A program made the translations under genes and the position numbers. The notes under the pieces were generated by a model. The model was given only the letters and a program-made list of their open reading frames with translations, had not been told where the DNA came from and ran no database searches. This document shows, in pieces, positions 10,591 through 21,679 of a stretch of DNA of 64,000 bases; position 1 is the first letter of the stretch, and the number at the start of each line of letters is the position of its first letter. Source of the stretch: Longimicrobiales bacterium (GTDB taxonomy: Bacteria; Gemmatimonadota; Gemmatimonadetes; Longimicrobiales; Gaopeijiaceae); contig OZ220732.1 of the NCBI GenBank assembly GCA_965116905.1, forward strand, positions 3,296,001-3,360,000. The letters run 5' to 3'.

Positions 10591-13287
10591 ATGGGGCTGT
10601 GTGGCGCGGTGGAGAAGGGGAAGCGGGGAGGTTGGTGTGCAGTGGCGGTGGCGGTGGCGGCGACGGCGTCGGTGGCAGCACCGGCGGCCCTCCCGGGCCA
10701 AAGCATCGAGAGCGGTGGCACGGAATCGGCAACCGGAGGACGTGCGGCTCCTCCAGCGCTGGAGGCCCACCGCATCAGCGGCCCCGCGCCGGTGATCGAC
10801 GGATTGCTCGACGAGGCGGACTGGCGGGCGGCGATGGTGGCCCGGGATTTTGTGGTCTTCGAGCCCAACGAAGGCATGCCGCCCTCCGAGAATACCGAAG
10901 CCCGGGTGCTCTACGGCGAAGAGGCCATCTATGTCGGCATCCGCGCCTTCGACGCCTCGCCGGACTCCATCGTCACTCGTCTGGCACGAAGAGACGAGCG
11001 ACCCCACTCCGACTGGGTGGACGTGGTGATCGACAGTTACCACGACAAGCGCACCGCATTTCGTTTCGGGGTCAACCCGGCCGGCGTGAAGAACGATTCC
11101 TACATGTTCGACGACACCAACGAGGACGACTCCTGGGACGCGGTGTGGGACGTCGCCACGCGGACCGACGACCAGGGCTGGACGGCCGAGTTCCGCATAC
11201 CGTACTCGCAACTGCGGTTCGACGGCGCTACGCAGCAGACCTGGGGAATCAACTTCGCCCGCTTCATCGCAAGGCACCTGGAGCGCAGCCTCTGGGCCCC
11301 GATCTCGCGGGGCGATGGCGCACTCGTCTCACGGTTCGGCGATCTCGTGGGGCTGCACGACCTCTCGCCCCCGACCCGGCTCGAGGTCCTGCCCTATTCC
11401 CTCGTGCGGATGGAGAGCGCGCCCGGCAACGCCGCTGATCCGTTCCACGATCCTTCCGACTTCTCCTCGACCGTGGGGGCCGACGTCAAGTACGGCCTCA
11501 CCACCGACCTCACCCTGGACGTCACCATCAACCCCGACTTCGGACAGGTGGAAGCCGATCCGGCCCAGGTCAACCTGACCGCCTTCGAGACCTTCTTTCC
11601 GGAGCGCCGCCCGTTTTTCGTGGAGGGCGCCGGCATCTTCTCCTTCCGGTTCTCCGAGGGAGACGGAGACATGGCCAGCGAGGGCCTCTTCTACTCCCGG
11701 CGCATCGGCCGTTCACCGCAGGGACGCGTTCAGTCGTCCGGCTACTTCGACGCGCCCGACCGAACGCGCATCCTCGGCGCAATGAAATTGTCGGGCAAGA
11801 CCCGCTCCGGCTGGTCGCTCGGGGTGCTGCACGCGCTCACCGGACAGGAGGAGGCCCTCCTCGCCACCGGAGCAGGCGCGACAAGCGATCAGGTGGTCGA
11901 GCCACGCGCCCAGTACGGCATGGCCCGGGTAAGCAGGGACTTCCGTGAGGGGAAGAGCGCCGTGGGAATGATCTCGACCTGGACGCGGCGCGACCCCGCC
12001 GCAGCCGGCCCACTCAGTCTGCACAGCGCCGCATACACAGGGGGCGTCGACGCCCGCCACCGCTTCGGAGACGATCGGTTCATCGTTTCCGGCTACCTGC
12101 TCGGCTCGACGGTCCGGGGCTCGGCGGATGCGATCGCCCGCACCCAGCGCTCCCCGGCCCGCTACTTCCAGCGTCCCGACGCCACACACACCGAGTACGA
12201 CCCCACGCGCACCTCGCTGGGCGGCTGGGCGGGATCGGCCACCCTGGCCAAGATCTCCGGGGGGTACTGGCGTTTCGCGACCGGGGCGATGGCGCGCTCA
12301 CCCGGCTTCGACTCCAACGATCTCGGCTTCATGCGGGAGGGGGACTTCATCGCACCCTTCGTCTGGGTAGGCTACCAGCACTTCCGGCCAACCGACCACT
12401 TTCAGCGCTGGCACGTCAACTTCAACGCCTGGACGCCCTACAGCTTCGGCGGAGAGGCCTATTCCAGGGGCGCGAACGTCAACGCCAGCGCTACCCTCAA
12501 CAACTTCTGGGGCGGCTACTTCGGCGTCATGAGACAGTCCGAGGGGCTGTCGAATACGATGTTGCGCGGTGGCCCGATGCTGCTGCGGGACCCATCGTGG
12601 GGCGGCTGGTACGGGTTCTGGTCGGATTCCCGCAAGCCGCTGCAGGTCGAGGTCGGCAACAACTGGCAACTCCGCCGGGAGAGCGGATCCTGGAGCTACG
12701 GAGCCGATGCGAACCTGCGCTGGCGGCCGTCGCCGCGCGCGACCCTCAGCGCGGGTCCCTTTGTCAACTGGAGACAAGAGGACCTGCAGTGGGTCGGACG
12801 TTTCGGGGCGGAGGTCCCCAACTACGTCTTTGCCGAGCTGTCGCAGACGACCGTCGGCATCACCGCCCGGGCGGACTGGACCTTCTCGCCCAACCTGTCG
12901 TTGCAGGTCTACGCGCAACCCTTCGTGTCGGCCGCCGACTACGGATCGTTCAAGCGCATCACGGACTCGCGCGCGACGGCCTACGCGGACCGGTTCGCCA
13001 ACCTGGGGACCGCGGACGGGGGCGATGGAACCCTCCAGGCCGACATCGACGGCGACGGCGCCGCCGACACCTTCCGCAACCCGGACTTCAACTTCAAGCA
13101 GTTCCGCTCGAACGTGGTGCTGCGCTGGGAATACCAGCCCGGGTCCGCGCTCTTCCTGGTGTGGTCGCAGGGGCGAGACCACTACGCCCAGACCGGCGAC
13201 TTCTCCTTCCGCAACGACCTCGACACCCTTCTCCACCAGCCTGGCCAGGACGTGCTCATGCTCAAGCTGAGCTACTGGCTCGGATAG
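10591..13287 (+). CDS. Secreted CBM9-like/DOMON + DUF5916 outer-membrane protein
   Basis: Signal-like N-terminus. Motifs PVIDGLLDEADW, WTAEFRIPYSQLRF, INPDFGQVEAD, FFPERRPFFVEG, FYSRRIG, and a C-terminal KLSYWLG beta-signal. Confidence 0.8.
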   Translation: MGLCGAVEKGKRGGWCAVAVAVAATASVAAPAALPGQSIESGGTESATGGRAAPPALEAHRISGPAPVIDGLLDEADWRAAMVARDFVVFEPNEGMPPSENTEARVLYGEEAIYVGIRAFDASPDSIVTRLARRDERPHSDWVDVVIDSYHDKRTAFRFGVNPAGVKNDSYMFDDTNEDDSWDAVWDVATRTDDQGWTAEFRIPYSQLRFDGATQQTWGINFARFIARHLERSLWAPISRGDGALVSRFGDLVGLHDLSPPTRLEVLPYSLVRMESAPGNAADPFHDPSDFSSTVGADVKYGLTTDLTLDVTINPDFGQVEADPAQVNLTAFETFFPERRPFFVEGAGIFSFRFSEGDGDMASEGLFYSRRIGRSPQGRVQSSGYFDAPDRTRILGAMKLSGKTRSGWSLGVLHALTGQEEALLATGAGATSDQVVEPRAQYGMARVSRDFREGKSAVGMISTWTRRDPAAAGPLSLHSAAYTGGVDARHRFGDDRFIVSGYLLGSTVRGSADAIARTQRSPARYFQRPDATHTEYDPTRTSLGGWAGSATLAKISGGYWRFATGAMARSPGFDSNDLGFMREGDFIAPFVWVGYQHFRPTDHFQRWHVNFNAWTPYSFGGEAYSRGANVNASATLNNFWGGYFGVMRQSEGLSNTMLRGGPMLLRDPSWGGWYGFWSDSRKPLQVEVGNNWQLRRESGSWSYGADANLRWRPSPRATLSAGPFVNWRQEDLQWVGRFGAEVPNYVFAELSQTTVGITARADWTFSPNLSLQVYAQPFVSAADYGSFKRITDSRATAYADRFANLGTADGGDGTLQADIDGDGAADTFRNPDFNFKQFRSNVVLRWEYQPGSALFLVWSQGRDHYAQTGDFSFRNDLDTLLHQPGQDVLMLKLSYWLG

Positions 13288-13423
13288 ACTGACGGGGACA
13301 CCGCCGCGCCGCTCCGGCGGCCGGCGGACAGGAGGCCGGTGTGGGCGCGTGTGGGCGCCCGCCCGGCCTCCGCCCGTCTCCGGGGCGGCCGTTGTGCCGG
13401 ACCGCCCCGCACGGCATACTTCG

Positions 13424-14905
13424 GTGCAATCGACCGGCCTGCCCACATCGACCGCGAGGACCACCACGCCCCCCCTGCCCCGCTTCGTCGCGGTCGTCAA
13501 GGACGACTGCGAGACCTGCCACCTCGTCGCACCCCTCCTCGCACAGATCGCGGCGGCAGGCCATCCGCTCGACGTGTATTGGCAAGACGACGGGGCCTTT
13601 CTGCCGACCTCTCTCGCCACGGTGGACGACCGCCATCTGGAGCATTCGTTCCGCATGGACATCGTGACGGTCCCCACCCTGATCCGGCTGGAAGACGGAG
13701 CGGAGACGAGACGGACCGAGGGATGGGACGCGGCCGACTGGCGCACCCTGACCGGCCTGGAAGGGCTCGGCGAGGCACTTCCGGCCCGTCGCCCCGGCTG
13801 CGGCTCACGCTCGGTCGAACCGGGCGTCGCGGAAGCACTTAGGGCGCGTTACGGCGAGACCGGGATCCTGGCACGCGAGGTCGTTCTCGGCGACATGATG
13901 GACCCCGTCGAGGCGTGCTTCGATCGCGGCTGGACCGACGGCCTCCCCGTCGTGCCCCCGACCCCCGAGCGAATCCTGCGCATGCTCGCCGGCACGAGGC
14001 GCGATCCGCACGAGATCGTCGGCCGCGTTCCGCCGGACATGGTCCCGTGCACGGTGGAGAAGGTTGCGATCAACGCGGTCATGGCGGGATGCAGACCCGA
14101 GTACCTCCCCGTAGTGCTGGCCGCGCTCGAGGCCGCGCTGGACCCCGCGTTCACCCTGCACGGTGTGACCTGCAGCACCTGCTTCTCCAGTCCCGTCGTC
14201 ATCGTCAACGGCCCGATCGCGAAGCGCCTGGGCATGAACTCGGGCATGAACGCGCTCGGCCAGGGCAACCGCGCCAACGCGACGATCGGACGCGCGCTCA
14301 ACCTCGTGGTCCGAAACGTCGGCGGCGGGCGGCCCGGCGAAATCGATCGCGCCACCCTGGGTACGCCCGGCAAGTACACGTTCTGCTTCGCCGAGGACGA
14401 GTCGGACGACGGCTGGACGCCTCTCGCGGTGGCACGGGGGGTTCCTCCCGGGTCGAGTGCCGTCACCGTCTTCGCCGGGGACGGTGTCCAGGGCGTCTGG
14501 GACCAGAAGGCGCGCACACCCGCCGAGCTGACGCATTCCCTCGCCATGGCGCTCACCGCAGTGGGGCATCCGAAGCTGTGCGAGTGGGTGCAGGCGGTTC
14601 TCGTTCTCTCGCCCGAGCACTACGCCATCTACCGCGGGGCCGGCTGGGACCGTGACCGGATCACCACCGGCCTCCAGGAGGCCCTGTCGCGCCCCGGCGC
14701 CGAGGTCGCGGCCGGGGTGGGTGGCGTCGCGGAGGGCATGCCGCCCTCACGCCGAGGCGAACAGGTACCCAAGTTTCATCCGAACGGCCTCCTGTTGGTC
14801 CGCGCAGGCGGACCGGCAGGGTTGATGTCCGCCATCCTGTCGGGCTGGCCGGGAGGACGCGACTACGAGGAATCCCACCCCATCACACGAGGAATCGTCG
14901 AATGA
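13424..14905 (+). CDS. Thioredoxin-like (CxxC) domain fused to the GWTDGLPVVPPT domain found with UGSC selenoproteins
   Basis: VVKDDCETC and IVTVPTLI (Trx-like cis-Pro loop), RPGCGS, GWTDGLPVVPPT, EKVAINAVMAGC, GVTCSTC, GNRANATIGRA. Start is uncertain (13349, 13424 or further downstream). Confidence 0.75.
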   Translation: MQSTGLPTSTARTTTPPLPRFVAVVKDDCETCHLVAPLLAQIAAAGHPLDVYWQDDGAFLPTSLATVDDRHLEHSFRMDIVTVPTLIRLEDGAETRRTEGWDAADWRTLTGLEGLGEALPARRPGCGSRSVEPGVAEALRARYGETGILAREVVLGDMMDPVEACFDRGWTDGLPVVPPTPERILRMLAGTRRDPHEIVGRVPPDMVPCTVEKVAINAVMAGCRPEYLPVVLAALEAALDPAFTLHGVTCSTCFSSPVVIVNGPIAKRLGMNSGMNALGQGNRANATIGRALNLVVRNVGGGRPGEIDRATLGTPGKYTFCFAEDESDDGWTPLAVARGVPPGSSAVTVFAGDGVQGVWDQKARTPAELTHSLAMALTAVGHPKLCEWVQAVLVLSPEHYAIYRGAGWDRDRITTGLQEALSRPGAEVAAGVGGVAEGMPPSRRGEQVPKFHPNGLLLVRAGGPAGLMSAILSGWPGGRDYEESHPITRGIVE

Positions 14906-15462
14906 ACAACCCCGAAATCCGGCTGCACGATCCCACGTCCGAATCCGCTCCGGCCGTCCGTCCCCGCCACCCTCCCCTTCCATCGCTGGCGGACAGAACG
15001 GTGGCGCTGTTCGACATCGGCAAGACACGCTCGGACGAGTTCCTGGATTACCTCGAAGCCCGGTTCCGGGCGCTGGACATCGCCACCGGGCGCTTCGCCA
15101 AGCCGACCAACGCCAAGCCCGCGTCCACGGAGACTCTGGACGCGATCGCGGCGGGCGCGGATGCGGTCGTCGTGGCGCTCGCCGACTGAGGCTCCTGCGT
15201 ATCATGCGGTCTGCATGACATCAGGATGCTCGACGATCGGGGCGTTCCCGGTCTCCTCGTAGCCACGACGGCCTTCGAGGACGCGGCCGCGCATCAGGCG
15301 CGCTCGCTCGGCTTCGATCCCGCCGTCGCCTGGGTGCCGCACCCCGTACAGAACCGGAGTCCCGACGAGCTGGAGGCCCTGGCCGCCATGGCGATGAAGT
15401 CCGTCCTGCGACACCTGACTTCGGACGGCGGGGACGACCTCGACCCGGGCACGACCCCCTGA
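14902..15462 (+). CDS. UGSC-family selenoprotein, 186 aa, TGA at 15187-15189 read as selenocysteine (codon 96)
   Basis: Track ORFs 14902-15189 and 15226-15462 are in the same frame with no other stop. Read-through gives VVALAD-U-GSCVSCGLHDIRMLDDRGVP. A SECIS-like hairpin follows, and the start overlaps the upstream stop (ATGA). Confidence 0.88.
15190..15226 (+). promoter_or_regulatory. Bacterial SECIS-like mRNA hairpin
   Basis: Lower stem TCCTG(15193-97)/CAGGA(15222-26). Upper stem TCATGC(15202-07)/GCATGA(15213-18). Loop GGTCT starts 18 nt after the UGA and resembles the E. coli fdhF SECIS apex (GCAGGTCTGC). Confidence 0.8.
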
Positions 15463-15498
15463 CCCCGACCCCGGTGACCCCTGCGCCTCCCGTCGCCG

Positions 15499-17262
15499 CT
15501 ACACGGGCGTCGTGGCGATCAGCAGCACCACGAGCACGACAAGCGTGAGCGGGGTGCCCAGCCGTGCGTAGTCCCCGAAATGATACCCTCCCGGGCCGTA
15601 GACCATCAGGTTGGTCTGGTACGCCACCGGCGTCATGAAGGACGCCGACGCGGAAAGCGCGACGGCCACCGCCGCCGCCCGCGCGTCGATCCCGAAGTCC
15701 GCGGCCGTCGAGAGCGCGATGGGCAGAACGAGCGCGGCGGCCGCGTTGTTGGTGATGAAGGAACTGAGCACCACGGTGCTGATCACGATGCCCGCCATGG
15801 CGCCCTGGGGCCCGAAGCGCCCGAGGACATCATTGACGAGCTGGGCGGCAGACTGGCCCAGGCCGGAGCTGTCGACCGCGGCGGCAAGCCCGAACGCGGC
15901 GCCGATCACGATGATGACCTCGAAATCGATCGAATCCTTGGCTTCATTCGTGGTCAGGATGCCGGAGCCGATAAGGACGAGCGCGCCGATCAGGGACAGG
16001 TGCAGGATGGGAAGCACGCCCAGGCCGGCGCCGAGCACGATGACCGCGGCAACACCCGCCACGACGGCCGCCTTTCCCGTGGGCTCCGGGGCCGTGTCCC
16101 CAAGGCGGGGCACAAGCAGAAAGTCGGTGCGGTGGCGCCAGCGCTCGCCGAAGCCCCGGTCCGAGATGAGCAGCAGCGTATCGCCGGCGCGGAGAGGCTC
16201 GCGCGCGAGGTGACCCTTGATCGGCTCCCCCGCCCGGTGGATCGCCACTACGGTGCCCTGATAGCGCGCCAGAAACTGGATGTCCACGAGCGAGCGGCCC
16301 ACGAGCCGGGACTCAGGCGCGATGACCGCCTCGAAGTACGCGTGCCGCGGGCTGCCCACCTCGTGGGGCAGGTGCGGCTCCTGGGCCGACGCTATGCCCG
16401 ACACGTCGTGCAGCTCGAGCACCGTGTCCATCCCTCCGACCAGCGTGACGTAATCGCCGCCCTTGAGCACCGTACGCCCCGAAACCTGCGCCGCCCCTTC
16501 ACCGTCGCGCTCGAAATACACGATCACCGCACCCTCGGGGAACCGCGTCCGGGCCTCGCTGACCGCCAGCCCATCGACGGGCCCGCCGGGCTCGACCACC
16601 ATGCGGACCGAGAAGCTCCGGCCCTCTGAACGCGCCTCCTGGCGCGGCGGCAGCCGGTCCGGCAGAAGCTTCGGCGAGAGCACGACGGTGATCACGAGGC
16701 CCAACAGGGCCATCGGCAGGGCGAGCCGGGTCAACTCGAACATCGAGAAGGGATCATGTCCCTCCGCCTGGAGCAGACCCGAGACCACGATGTTCGTGGA
16801 TGTGCCGATCAGCGTGGTCATGCCCCCCAGAATGGCGGCGAACGAAAGCGGCATGAGGTAGCGGGACGCCGAGTCTCCGCGCCGGTCGGCCCACTCCGCC
16901 ACCTGCGGCGCCAGCATGGCGATGATCGGGGTATTGTTCAGGAACGCGGACGAGGCGGCCACGGGAACCGTAATCCGCGCGAGCGCGGTGCGCAGACCGC
17001 GGGCCTTCCCCAGGGTCGCGCGCACGAGGGGCTGCAGCGCCCCGCTCTTTTCCACCCCCCGCGCCAGGATGTAGAGCGCGGCAACGGTGATGGGCGCCGG
17101 ATTCGAGAACCCCTGGAACGCCTGCCCCGGACTCACGACATCCGCCACCATGAGCACCACGACCGCGGCCCCGAAGGTGACGGCCGGTGATACCAGTTCG
17201 CGAGCGAGCACCACGACGGCCACCGAGACGACCGCCAGCGTCAGCCACGCGTCGGCGCTCAT
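15499..17262 (-). CDS. SLC13/CitMHS-type permease with TrkA-C domains (di/tricarboxylate or sulfate transporter)
   Basis: GFSNPAPITVAAL, SAFLNNTP, LIGTSTN, two central TrkA-C-like domains, ITNNAAAAL, TPVAYQTNLMVYGPGGY. Confidence 0.88.
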   Translation of the reverse strand: MSADAWLTLAVVSVAVVVLARELVSPAVTFGAAVVVLMVADVVSPGQAFQGFSNPAPITVAALYILARGVEKSGALQPLVRATLGKARGLRTALARITVPVAASSAFLNNTPIIAMLAPQVAEWADRRGDSASRYLMPLSFAAILGGMTTLIGTSTNIVVSGLLQAEGHDPFSMFELTRLALPMALLGLVITVVLSPKLLPDRLPPRQEARSEGRSFSVRMVVEPGGPVDGLAVSEARTRFPEGAVIVYFERDGEGAAQVSGRTVLKGGDYVTLVGGMDTVLELHDVSGIASAQEPHLPHEVGSPRHAYFEAVIAPESRLVGRSLVDIQFLARYQGTVVAIHRAGEPIKGHLAREPLRAGDTLLLISDRGFGERWRHRTDFLLVPRLGDTAPEPTGKAAVVAGVAAVIVLGAGLGVLPILHLSLIGALVLIGSGILTTNEAKDSIDFEVIIVIGAAFGLAAAVDSSGLGQSAAQLVNDVLGRFGPQGAMAGIVISTVVLSSFITNNAAAALVLPIALSTAADFGIDARAAAVAVALSASASFMTPVAYQTNLMVYGPGGYHFGDYARLGTPLTLVVLVVLLIATTPV

Positions 17263-18481: not shown

Positions 18482-21400
18482 TCACCGATCCCGCGGTTCG
18501 CCTCCCTGCCCGGGTTCCGGGCTTCGCTCCAGAAGCGCCGGCGCTTCGTGAACCCGGCCTCCAAGGATCACGGCCCGGAGGTCCCGCAACGCCCGGATAT
18601 CGTGCGTGGGATCCTCGCCGATCACGATCAGGTCGGCAATGGCGCCGGGAGCGACAACCCCCAGGCGGCCCTCCTGGCCCAGGGCCTCGCCCGACGCCGA
18701 GGTCGTCGCCCTCAGCACGTCGACGCTCCGCATCTCCCCGTAGCGCACCAGCGCCTCCATCTCCGCGAGGAGGCTGATCCCCGGTGGGTTGATGGGTGCG
18801 TCCGTCCCCATGATGACCCGGCCGCCGGCCTCGACCACCCGGCGAGGCAGCGAGGCCATGTCCCGCACCGGGCGCCGCGCCGCATCCAGATCCGCCGGCC
18901 GCCGCGCCAGCTCCGGGGCCTGCGGGAAGAAGGTCTCGACCCGCGGGTCGTCGAACAGCGAAGGGTCCTCCGCGACAAGAAGGCCGTAGGCACCGTAGAT
19001 CCCGACCGTGGGCGCCATCGTCATGCCGGAGGCCGCGAGGAGCGCGACCACGTCGCCGTAGCTGCGCGACAGCTCCGAGATCTTCGTCGAATAGCCGCGC
19101 CGGCTCGTGCCCCGGACATGTTCGACGCCGTCCGCGCCGAACGCCACCGCGGGATACAACCCATGGGAGGTAACCGGGACCCCGAGCGTGTGAGCCTCCT
19201 CGATGGCCCGCCTCTGGACGGGATCGGACAGCCGCACGTACGTCTTGACAAGGTCGTAGCCGAGTGCGGCGACGCGGGCCATCTCGAGTTCCAGCTGCGC
19301 CGGGGCACCCAACGCGGGAGCGCCGGGATAGTAGATCCGGCTGCCGTCGATCGTTCCCCCGGTACCGAACCACCTCGGGGCGTTTCGCCTGCCCGACTCT
19401 CCCGCCTCCTTCGCCTCGGCCATCTCCCACGGATCGCACGCCGGGCAGCGCACCGAGGTCACGCCGTAGGACAGCCAGAGACGCCCAATCTGCTCGCCGG
19501 ACGCGAGACCGCCATGCGCGTGCATCTCCATCAGGCCCGGCATTACGACCTCGTCGCCGGCGTCGACCACCCGGGCCGCATTGCGTGCGGGATCGCGGTC
19601 CGCAACCTCGACAATGCGCCCGCCCTCGATGAGAATGTCCACGTCGCGGCGCAGCGTTTCCGATCGTCCGTCCCACATCGCCCCCGCACGGATCAGCAGG
19701 GACTGCGGCGGCGCGGGCCGCGACCACGTCAGGGGGAGCGGAATGTCCTCGACGCTCCCGTCGAGGAGGTCGACGCGCCGGAGACCGTCCGCACCCAGGT
19801 AGACGATGGAACGCGAGTCACCCGTCCAGGTCGGATCGTCGGTCGCTTCGTTGGTGAGACGTCGCGGGCTCGAGGTCGCCGGGTCGCCGTTCACCTCCGT
19901 GGGGACCGCCCACAGCACCCCGCCGGCAACGTAGGCCAGCCACCTGCCGTCGGGTGACCGGATCGGACCGTCGGTCCCGCGTGTGCCGATCGAGGTATGC
20001 GCGGGAAGGTCCAGGAAGCGCTCGTGCTCCTGCGAGAGCGGGGCTGTGTGGGCCCCGTGAACGTGCCCGTTCCACGCCGGAGCCTGCCACGGCCGGAAAG
20101 CCGCCGTGAGTCCGCCGTCCGCGGCCTGCACGGGCTCGATCGGTATCACGACGGCGCGGTTCACACCCTCCCGGAACCTGTCGGCATAGGGTTGGTGAAC
20201 CGACGTGACGATGGATCGTCCGTCCGGGGACCACGACGGCCGGCCCGCGCCGCGCAGACCCGATCTGAGCGTGCGCACCGACCCCGTGGCCAGCTCCGCC
20301 ACGCTGATCCCGACCTGGTAGCCGGAACCCACGAACGCGAGCCGGTTTCCGTCGGGCGCCCATGCCGCCATGGTCGCGCCCGCTCCCTCGGTGACCCGGA
20401 CGGTGCTGCCGTCGGCCATGCGCCGGATGTACAGGTCGGTTCGCCCGTCGCGGTCCGACGAGAAGGCCAGCCGCGAGCCGTCCGGAGACCATGCCGGATC
20501 GATCTCGATCCAGGGGTCGTCGGTCAGCTGCTCCGTGCCGCCGCCGATGCTGTGCACCCACAGGTCGCCGCGCGCCGAGAAGGCGATGCGGCTGCCGTCG
20601 GGCGACACGGCCGGCGACACGATGCCGCGCACCGGGAAGGTCCCCGGTGTGTCGAGATCGCGCAGGCGCCGCTCATATGGCGTGCGGTCCAGCGTCACGG
20701 TGCCCGTGAAGGGAATGTCCGCGAGGCCGCTGCCGTCGTAGCCGCGGCGGCGGACGAGGCCGTCGGCGGTGTAGACGAAGCCGCGCGTGGTGGCCGAGAC
20801 GCGGAACGGGAACACATCTTCGTCGGCGCCCGTGAGGACCCGCGGCGCGGTCCCGCCGCCCCCATCGTCCCCACCATCCGCGGCGACCACGCGCAGCACC
20901 GACCGTCCCGCGCCGATCTCGTTGTAGATCACCATCGCGCCGCGGGCGTCCCATCCCGGCGCGTTGACCTGCCCGCCATCGGTGCCGGCCACGCGGCGCG
21001 CCGGGCCCCCGCCGCCACCCCACCCCTCCACCACCCAGATCCCGGCCGCGTCTCCGCTCCCCGACGCCGCAAACACCAGGCGGCGGCCGTCCGGTGAGAA
21101 AGTCGGCCCATACTCGCTTCCCGGCGCATCGGTCACCCGGGTCACGGCTCCGTCGTCCACCGCGAGCACCCAGATGTCGTAGCTGCCCATCCGGTCCGAA
21201 CTGAACGCGATCCTGTCGCCGTCCGGGGACCAGTGCGGCTCGCGGTGGTCGTATGGACCGCGCGTGTGCTGGCGCAGCCCGGAACCGTCCGGGGCGACGC
21301 TCCACACGTGGTAGTTGCCGTCCCAGTACGCCTGGAACGCGATGCGCGCCCCGTCCGGCGACCACGACGGCTGGCGGGCGTCACCCACCGGGTCGGTGAT

Positions 21401-21679
21401 CGGCTCGGCACGGCCGCCCGCTGCCGGCATCACCCAGATCCGCCCCAGCAGATCGAAGGCGAGCACGGTGCCGTCGGGCGACAGCGCGGCCGCGATGTTC
21501 GTGCCCTCGGTCACCGTCACCTCGATGACCGACCGGGGCGGCTCCTGTGCGTGCAGGCCCCCGGCGGCACCGGCGCGGGCCTGCGCCGGGGCTCCGGGCG
21601 CCAGCGCCGCTGCGGTGGCCATGGCCGCCACCGGCGCCATGGCCGCCACCGCCGCCATCGCTACCTCCCCTCGATCCAC
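18482..21679 (-). CDS. Secreted TolB-like (PD40 repeat) beta-propeller + amidohydrolase
   Basis: Many PSWSPDG/AFSSDR repeats. C-terminal amidohydrolase with MPGLMEMHAH, VKTY, TSH, VEH, MGTDAP and ADLIVI. Confidence 0.88.
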   Translation of the reverse strand: MDRGEVAMAAVAAMAPVAAMATAAALAPGAPAQARAGAAGGLHAQEPPRSVIEVTVTEGTNIAAALSPDGTVLAFDLLGRIWVMPAAGGRAEPITDPVGDARQPSWSPDGARIAFQAYWDGNYHVWSVAPDGSGLRQHTRGPYDHREPHWSPDGDRIAFSSDRMGSYDIWVLAVDDGAVTRVTDAPGSEYGPTFSPDGRRLVFAASGSGDAAGIWVVEGWGGGGGPARRVAGTDGGQVNAPGWDARGAMVIYNEIGAGRSVLRVVAADGGDDGGGGTAPRVLTGADEDVFPFRVSATTRGFVYTADGLVRRRGYDGSGLADIPFTGTVTLDRTPYERRLRDLDTPGTFPVRGIVSPAVSPDGSRIAFSARGDLWVHSIGGGTEQLTDDPWIEIDPAWSPDGSRLAFSSDRDGRTDLYIRRMADGSTVRVTEGAGATMAAWAPDGNRLAFVGSGYQVGISVAELATGSVRTLRSGLRGAGRPSWSPDGRSIVTSVHQPYADRFREGVNRAVVIPIEPVQAADGGLTAAFRPWQAPAWNGHVHGAHTAPLSQEHERFLDLPAHTSIGTRGTDGPIRSPDGRWLAYVAGGVLWAVPTEVNGDPATSSPRRLTNEATDDPTWTGDSRSIVYLGADGLRRVDLLDGSVEDIPLPLTWSRPAPPQSLLIRAGAMWDGRSETLRRDVDILIEGGRIVEVADRDPARNAARVVDAGDEVVMPGLMEMHAHGGLASGEQIGRLWLSYGVTSVRCPACDPWEMAEAKEAGESGRRNAPRWFGTGGTIDGSRIYYPGAPALGAPAQLELEMARVAALGYDLVKTYVRLSDPVQRRAIEEAHTLGVPVTSHGLYPAVAFGADGVEHVRGTSRRGYSTKISELSRSYGDVVALLAASGMTMAPTVGIYGAYGLLVAEDPSLFDDPRVETFFPQAPELARRPADLDAARRPVRDMASLPRRVVEAGGRVIMGTDAPINPPGISLLAEMEALVRYGEMRSVDVLRATTSASGEALGQEGRLGVVAPGAIADLIVIGEDPTHDIRALRDLRAVILGGRVHEAPALLERSPEPGQGGEPRDR

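Follow-up and report, generated by a model that had tools for sequence, protein, structure and literature searches.

Two genes overlap on the forward strand in the window, which is the whole 64,000-nucleotide stretch of a Longimicrobiales genome that was analysed. The downstream gene, read through an in-frame UGA, encodes a predicted selenoprotein of the UGSC family with the motif D-U96-G-S-C99-V-S-C102-G-L-H-D. The upstream gene encodes the protein referred to below as the partner, and all features are collected in Table 1. The selenoprotein reading of the original prediction stands; the prediction did not recognise the UGSC family and missed the coupled upstream partner. The GAGGA sequence together with the ATGA overlap suggests that translation of the partner and UGSC genes may be coupled. 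No promoter-like or terminator-like site was found in 13200-15600.

A transporter, a small membrane protein and DapF recur beside the UGSC gene in roughly half the loci of a species collection (53 loci), in a clustering that merged some families. The recurrence of these flanking genes is apparently local synteny, and given this synteny and the merged clusters no substrate was deduced from the neighbours.

Table 1. Features of the locus and its surroundings (positions in the window)
Feature	Position	Strand	Remarks
CBM9-like/DUF5916 protein	10591-13287	+	flanking gene
Partner gene	13424..14905	+	about 493 aa; thioredoxin domain and 'Unknown_1'; longest ORF from GTG 13349
Thioredoxin domain of partner	13466..13759	+	C29-E-T-C32 at 13508-13519
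'Unknown_1' core of partner	13871..14902	+	GWTDGLPVVPPT, NAVMAGCxPEY and RANATIGRA motifs; no Pfam/NCBIfam family
GAGGA (14889-14893) and ATGA overlap with the end of the partner gene	14889..14905	+	Shine-Dalgarno-like, from sequence
UGSC-family selenoprotein gene (predicted)	14902..15462	+	186 aa including Sec96; read-through frame and family match
Predicted selenocysteine codon, in-frame UGA	15187..15189	+	codon 96; TGA kept across relatives, Cys in three fusions
Lower helix extending the SECIS core	15193..15226	+	predicted -13.5 kcal/mol; partly conserved
SECIS core (predicted)	15202..15218	+	stem UCAUGC / loop GGUCU (15208-15212) / GCAUGA
SLC13-type anion transporter with TrkA-C domains	15499-17262	-	flanking gene
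Fusion protein of 1065 aa with TolB-like beta-propeller repeats plus an amidohydrolase domain	18482-21679	-	

The in-frame UGA and its homologues

The UGSC gene runs in one frame from the ATG at 14902 to the TGA at 15460-15462, and the TGA at 15187-15189 is the only one inside it; the codons quoted in the original prediction were located at 15181-15228 and keep the frame open to 15462, as claimed. Read with table 11, the same DNA falls into two ORFs, 14902-15189 (95 aa) and 15226-15462 (78 aa), whose products match one half each of a single family model. The gene is present in a single copy in the genome. It had been expected that standard pipelines would call such a gene truncated, and among the database proteins of relatives 7 of the 9 matches to the UGSC protein do end just before the Sec position.

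Two features would suit a true stop: more long ORFs end in TGA here than in any other stop (786 of 1349), and the downstream half could start from an ATG of its own at 15226. Against that reading, the methionine encoded by this ATG (M109) is not conserved, and a start there would lose the invariant stretch G97-D106, which includes H105 and D106. H147 is also invariant. The assembled contigs of three of the four sequencing runs (X2, X3 and X4; X5 was without coverage) cross the TGA, and none of the differences listed falls at 15187-15218. Since the contigs X2, X3 and X4 agree, the TGA is no assembly error, and their independence speaks against a lesion. X3, an RNA-library contig spanning the gene, was rejected as evidence of transcription, as DNA can be present in such a library. 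Where the sequencing runs containing the stretch carry a label, it is sponge metagenome, and the nearest records with a name belong to Gemmatimonadota, most of them being Longimicrobiales MAGs. A short repeated stretch (15442-15468) at the gene's 3' end, outside the conserved domain, varies between strains; in X3 it has 19 bases duplicated and in X4 44 bases deleted.

The UGSC gene is carried by 17 of 24 same-genus genomes and by none of the 16 genomes of two other families (40 relatives altogether). The TGA is found at the motif in 17/17 same-genus copies and at the site in 52 of the 53 loci of the species collection, the remaining locus ending before it, and among the 301 phylum genomes, 37 of which match PF24696, all 36 matches over the cut-off have one internal TGA (the 37th is weak and partial); these three sets overlap and are kin, so that their counts are not independent. 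Records from Gemmatimonadota and betaproteobacteria share this TGA at one catalytic column, which argues against a true stop. No Cys form was seen in the phylum genomes, the genus relatives or the 53 loci. The search for homologues with Cys aligned to the TGA, proposed along with the original prediction, revealed Cys at the Sec column in three distant UGSC-partner fusions, P0271, P0253 and P0264 (among the 150 partner homologues listed, at the protein level), beside the TGA of the loci counted above; this also opposes a stop. Two of the three Cys fusions are devoid of the second Cys (CGAS, CGTS), in view of which a resolving-Cys step would not be universal.

One protein with Leu at the Sec column, P0005, was discarded as probably erroneous, with its frameshift-like tail and 602-base contig. 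Four loci labelled Gammaproteobacteria (L039, L041, L042 and L044) carry a UGSC gene nested among those of Gemmatimonadota on the tree, a placement that reflects either transfer among symbionts or misbinning.

The SECIS hairpin and the selenocysteine machinery

The RNA that follows the UGA is predicted to fold in two tiers, with an upper stem of 6 bp and a GGUCU loop starting 18 nt after the UGA. The bSECIS consensus given in Fig. 2 of PMC13188914 consists of a loop of 3-9 nt, a stem of 4-16 bp, a G in the first two loop positions and a distance of 16-37 nt from the UGA, and the hairpin has this geometry (loop 5 nt, stem 6 bp, spacing 18 nt). The bSECIS energy criterion (-7.5 kcal/mol or lower) is reached by the fold of 15193-15226 at -13.5, and the conserved core alone gives -6.4. 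The folding energy is unremarkable alone (z from -0.5 to -1.9 in four windows), and a comparable rule that asks for a stem of at least 6 bp is satisfied by 212 of the 1138 long ORFs ending in an ordinary TGA stop (717 of 1138 at 4 bp), which would be compatible with a true stop. On account of these z values and chance rates, folding energy was rejected as proof of a SECIS, and the hairpin by itself is weak evidence for one.

The alignment used to follow the stem comprised 38 sequences, that of the window and 37 of 52 loci, with near-duplicates omitted. All six pairs of the upper stem hold in 38/38 sequences (100% of cells), compared with 0-49% in slid controls. Pairing in the lower tier is kept in 6/38 (9-38), 19/38 (2-45) and 25/38 (14-34), so the two-tier hairpin is not supported as a conserved whole; of the structure described originally, the fold, the GGTCT apex and the spacing were found, and the lower tier had been overstated. 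The pair 15204/15216 joins two silent third codon positions; among the 67 distinct sequences (of 82), 37 have A-U there, 30 have G-C and none is mismatched. On a tree built without the SECIS, 5 switches between A-U and G-C are needed and at least 3 are forced by strong branches. This covariation is an unusually clean signal of the predicted SECIS, and such a covarying stem would not be expected of a true stop.

The loop codon GGT is fixed in 47/47 and makes up 10% of Gly codons genome-wide. The codons GTA and TCA had been pointed out as unusual for this genome, and they do account for only 4.0% of Val and 3.5% of Ser codons in the 1349 long ORFs, which were picked for high GC3, so that A-ending codons may be undercounted. 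As to the constraint of RNA structure proposed for both codons, TCA is accounted for by the SECIS stem in which it lies, and the final A of the codon before it is kept in 52 of 67 sequences; the other 15 have G, by which the stem is lengthened.

The genome, a single contig of 4.2 Mb that is 97% complete, had been expected to contain selA, selB, selC and selD, the set by which a bacterial selenoprotein can be tested, and the suggested search for selABD and tRNA-Sec found all four. selA (497.6 bits), selB (308.2 bits) and selD (373.3 bits, with its own in-frame TGA) score over their cut-offs, and a tRNA with the anticodon UCA is present. selA was also found in 24/24 same-genus genomes, in 8/8 genomes of one other family and in 0/8 of a third. 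A motif scan gave four other candidate selenoprotein genes, at positions 3903242 (-), 3674310 (+), 3369960 (-) and 641802 (+) of G000:C1. From their motifs we take these to include a peroxiredoxin-like protein (GHWUPFC) and two AhpD-like proteins (DCFYU); one of the four is SelD, identified by profile score and not by motif. The motif scan is incomplete because the UGSC gene itself was missed by it. Elsewhere on the same contig, 17 tRNA genes are arrayed within 2 kb (G000:C1:1296478-1298432).

The UGSC protein is very likely a selenoprotein because the UGA, a conserved covarying hairpin and the full Sec machinery occur together, and the proposal of a hidden selenoprotein joining two ORFs is supported by this machinery and by the homologues aligned across the TGA. 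The UGA at 15187-15189 is almost certainly recoded as Sec. SelB with Sec-tRNA(Sec) would recognise the stem capped by GGUCU, and Sec96 would be inserted by the established SelA/B/C/D pathway.

The upstream partner

When the partner alignment was compared with solved structures, only thioredoxins appeared in the best 60 of 87 matches (best E 4e-4). The partner model (pLDDT 95.8) matches thioredoxin with Z 10.1 and rmsd 2.5 over 88 aligned residues, and the two cysteines of this domain are conserved in 59/62 (C29) and 54/62 (C32) sequences. The core of 340 aa gave no Pfam match at E up to 1 and belongs to no NCBIfam family; its conserved residues are D172, C223 (119/123), N285, R290, C321 (111/122) and H399. 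The only structural match of the core, a weak one, is to class I Fe-S fumarate hydratase; the structure searches used the whole partner, and in one of them the thioredoxin domain filled the list. The partner family comprises 6023 clusters at E up to 0.001 and has no family name.

Fusions of UGSC with Unknown_1 are published in Fig. S1A of PMC2398784. The motif printed in that figure for Unknown_1, A[VI]N[GA]VMAGC[RK]PEY...NG, matches, in a comparison by eye, the partner's AINAVMAGCRPEYLPV...IVNGP. In contrast to the published fusions, Unknown_1 is encoded here by a separate coupled upstream gene and is fused to thioredoxin and not to UGSC.

The partner lies upstream of the UGSC gene in 51 of the 53 loci, the two others being without upstream DNA, and in 29/29 further loci. 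Natural UGSC-partner fusions were found in both domain orders by the partner search; with the UGSC protein as query no longer fused forms were seen among 7993 candidates, which is weak evidence. The UGSC protein and the partner very probably form a functional pair, and their binding to each other would be part of it. In one locus (L068:2751-5001) about 2.2 kb separates the partner from the UGSC gene in place of the usual overlap. Partner matches lie in three frames in L029 (the same place as L010 and L088) and in two pieces in L049, owing to frameshifts or assembly errors.

Three partners, P0144, P0176 and P0210, carry AhpC-TSA/Redoxin domains in place of the simple thioredoxin; the redox module has therefore been attached more than once. 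Six proteins of about 710-740 aa (P0164, P0187, P0188, P0189, P0199 and P0208) have two or three stretches matching the partner and probably contain Unknown_1 in tandem copies, a hint that this domain may work as a dimer.

Family membership, fold and possible chemistry

The read-through protein matches Pfam UGSC (PF24696) with 114.6 bits (cut-off 25) over profile positions 2-171 of 172, and it has the U/C-G-S-C motif of that family, in which UGA or Cys comes first. With C scored for U, it remains below the cut-off of NCBIfam NF041046 (110.9 vs 125 bits; E 5e-32, profile 3-147 of 147), as do the three Cys fusions (99.9-112 bits). Because 114.6 exceeds 25 and 110.9 falls short of 125, the predicted protein is filed under PF24696 and not under the NF041046 equivalog. 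The family and its link to Unknown_1 have been in print since 2007-2008, in the available text of PMC1976440, which lists UGSC-containing proteins and names Hyphomonas neptunium as a carrier, and of PMC2398784, which counts UGSC among the major marine selenoproteins, with 255 sequences in the GOS survey; the same association is found here. UGSC is catalogued without a function in the available parts of PMC9312934 and PMC13188914, and our literature searches on UGSC found no functional study. A literature search found no report of UGSC in sponge Gemmatimonadota; the main text of the BSepDB paper names neither UGSC nor Gemmatimonadota, and its supplements or database may hold the clade.

The gene is very likely one more member of the catalogued UGSC family, with which it shares the full-length domain match, the U-G-S-C motif, the UGA with a downstream SECIS and the Unknown_1 link. 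It differs from the known family in being separate from the gene of a partner that carries an N-terminal thioredoxin, in its third Cys (UGSCxSC) and in missing the NF041046 cut-off.

The UGSC model (pLDDT 89.1) is an alpha/beta sandwich in which U96 begins the helix after the third strand. The matches listed for it are flavodoxin-like, TIR, PurE and receiver folds at Z 9.1-11.5, with no clear winner; the top one is a parallel alpha/beta flavodoxin-like structure (Z 11.5, rmsd 2.9, 125 aligned). No thioredoxin is among the matches listed in either fold search with the model, and unlisted families may include it. The UGSC alignment gave 0 matches to solved structures at E up to 1, and a search of the ESM Atlas gave only unnamed clusters, plus one that is 16% UGSC. 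The flavodoxin-like model looks like a poor fit to the Trx-like fold under which UGSC is grouped in the available text of two reviews (PMC2398784, PMC13188914), though that fold may still apply.

A weak match of NCBIfam TIGR01917 over residues 77-158 of the UGSC protein (E 0.0011; 18 bits vs a cut-off of 602) was the reason for a comparison with the GrdB/PrdB family. The UGSC profile matched a GrdB/PrdB profile, built from 18 family sequences from the phylum (18 of 25 loci retrieved), with a probability of 92% over 88 columns, Sec and the resolving Cys being in register. Block shuffles (30) reached at most 19%. A thioredoxin profile used as a control reached 91% over 66 columns, in an alignment that was out of register and contained a gap of 24 columns; GrdB is therefore not distinguished by the profile score on its own. 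The UGSC protein has no PF07355 match at E up to 1, and no PF07355 match was found in this genome. Both systems have a Sec that follows a beta-strand in a UxxC motif and a larger partner subunit. Unlike GrdB/PrdB, UGSC is without the long N-terminal GRDB region and its Unknown_1 partner matches no Pfam family. In the Pfam and NCBIfam searches the partner shows no sign of being a pyruvoyl-type GrdE/PrdA subunit. Many GrdB/PrdB-family genes of Gemmatimonadota (L107-L128) have a PF07355 match that stops at a TGA, beyond which the sequence continues with a conserved UxxC (19/19 of those listed), and are predicted to be further hidden selenoproteins.

In proline reductase, according to the available text of PMC11229817, the Sec subunit PrdB attacks a substrate bound by the partner subunit. 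By analogy with GrdB/PrdB, the Sec96 selenolate at the start of the helix would attack a substrate held by Unknown_1, C99 or C102 would resolve the adduct, and the CxxC thioredoxin domain of the partner, fed by NADPH and the thioredoxin reductase (TrxB) encoded in the genome, would re-reduce it. For such a GrdB/PrdB-like mechanism the case is evenly balanced. The full statement, that UGA recoding yields the selenol-bearing subunit of a two-part reductase whose other part is the thioredoxin-fused upstream partner, is slightly favoured.

The same selenoprotein pair could instead serve generic thiol redox, that is peroxide, disulfide or sulfoxide reduction, or sulfur/selenium transfer. This would agree with the UxxC motif, for which the literature assumes redox, with the thioredoxin on the partner and the Redoxin/AhpC-TSA domains on P0144, P0176 and P0210, with the other redox selenoprotein candidates of the genome and with the Trx-like placement in the reviews. 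The flavodoxin-like best matches of the UGSC model are at odds with it, and the conserved partner with its polar invariant residues D172, N285, R290 and H399 suggests a specific substrate; we consider generic thiol redox rather unlikely.

A still less probable role for U96, C99 and C102, perhaps with C223 and C321 of the partner, would be that of metal, metalloid or Fe-S ligands in a metallo-enzyme (e.g. a hydro-lyase) or in metal(loid) handling. The chalcogens at i, i+3 and i+6 together with the invariant H105, D106 and H147 would fit such a site, but C99 and C102 are not kept in the distant Cys fusions. Foldseek finds the partner model weakly similar to the fumarate hydratase (E 5e-4 to 2e-3, probability 0.66-0.84), but with an rmsd of 11-15 A and a query TM of about 0.2, and the rank 2 match of the UGSC model, a chain from the activation complex of methyl-coenzyme M reductase (Z 11.3, rmsd 3.2, 132 aligned, 7% identity), is tied with many unrelated alpha/beta folds. 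A true stop or a lesion at the TGA (split gene, pseudogene or sequencing error) is hardly credible in view of the column, covariation and contig data above.

A two-part reductase remains the preferred reading of the pair. More tentatively, and with some doubt, UGSC and Unknown_1 might represent a widespread, unrecognised and pyruvoyl-independent cousin of glycine and proline reductase, with a flavodoxin-like Sec subunit for reductive cleavage, a substrate-binding subunit without a clear solved relative and a built-in thioredoxin, in a sponge symbiont. The locus adds little beyond other UGSC members; it does call for a correction of gene calls, as the database proteins of relatives are cut at the UGA and the clade scores below the NCBIfam cut-off. 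If the tentative kinship with glycine and proline reductase is true, the fold of the UGSC catalytic subunit would not be Trx as assumed in print. The compact two-gene unit with its own thioredoxin is a convenient system for substrate discovery.
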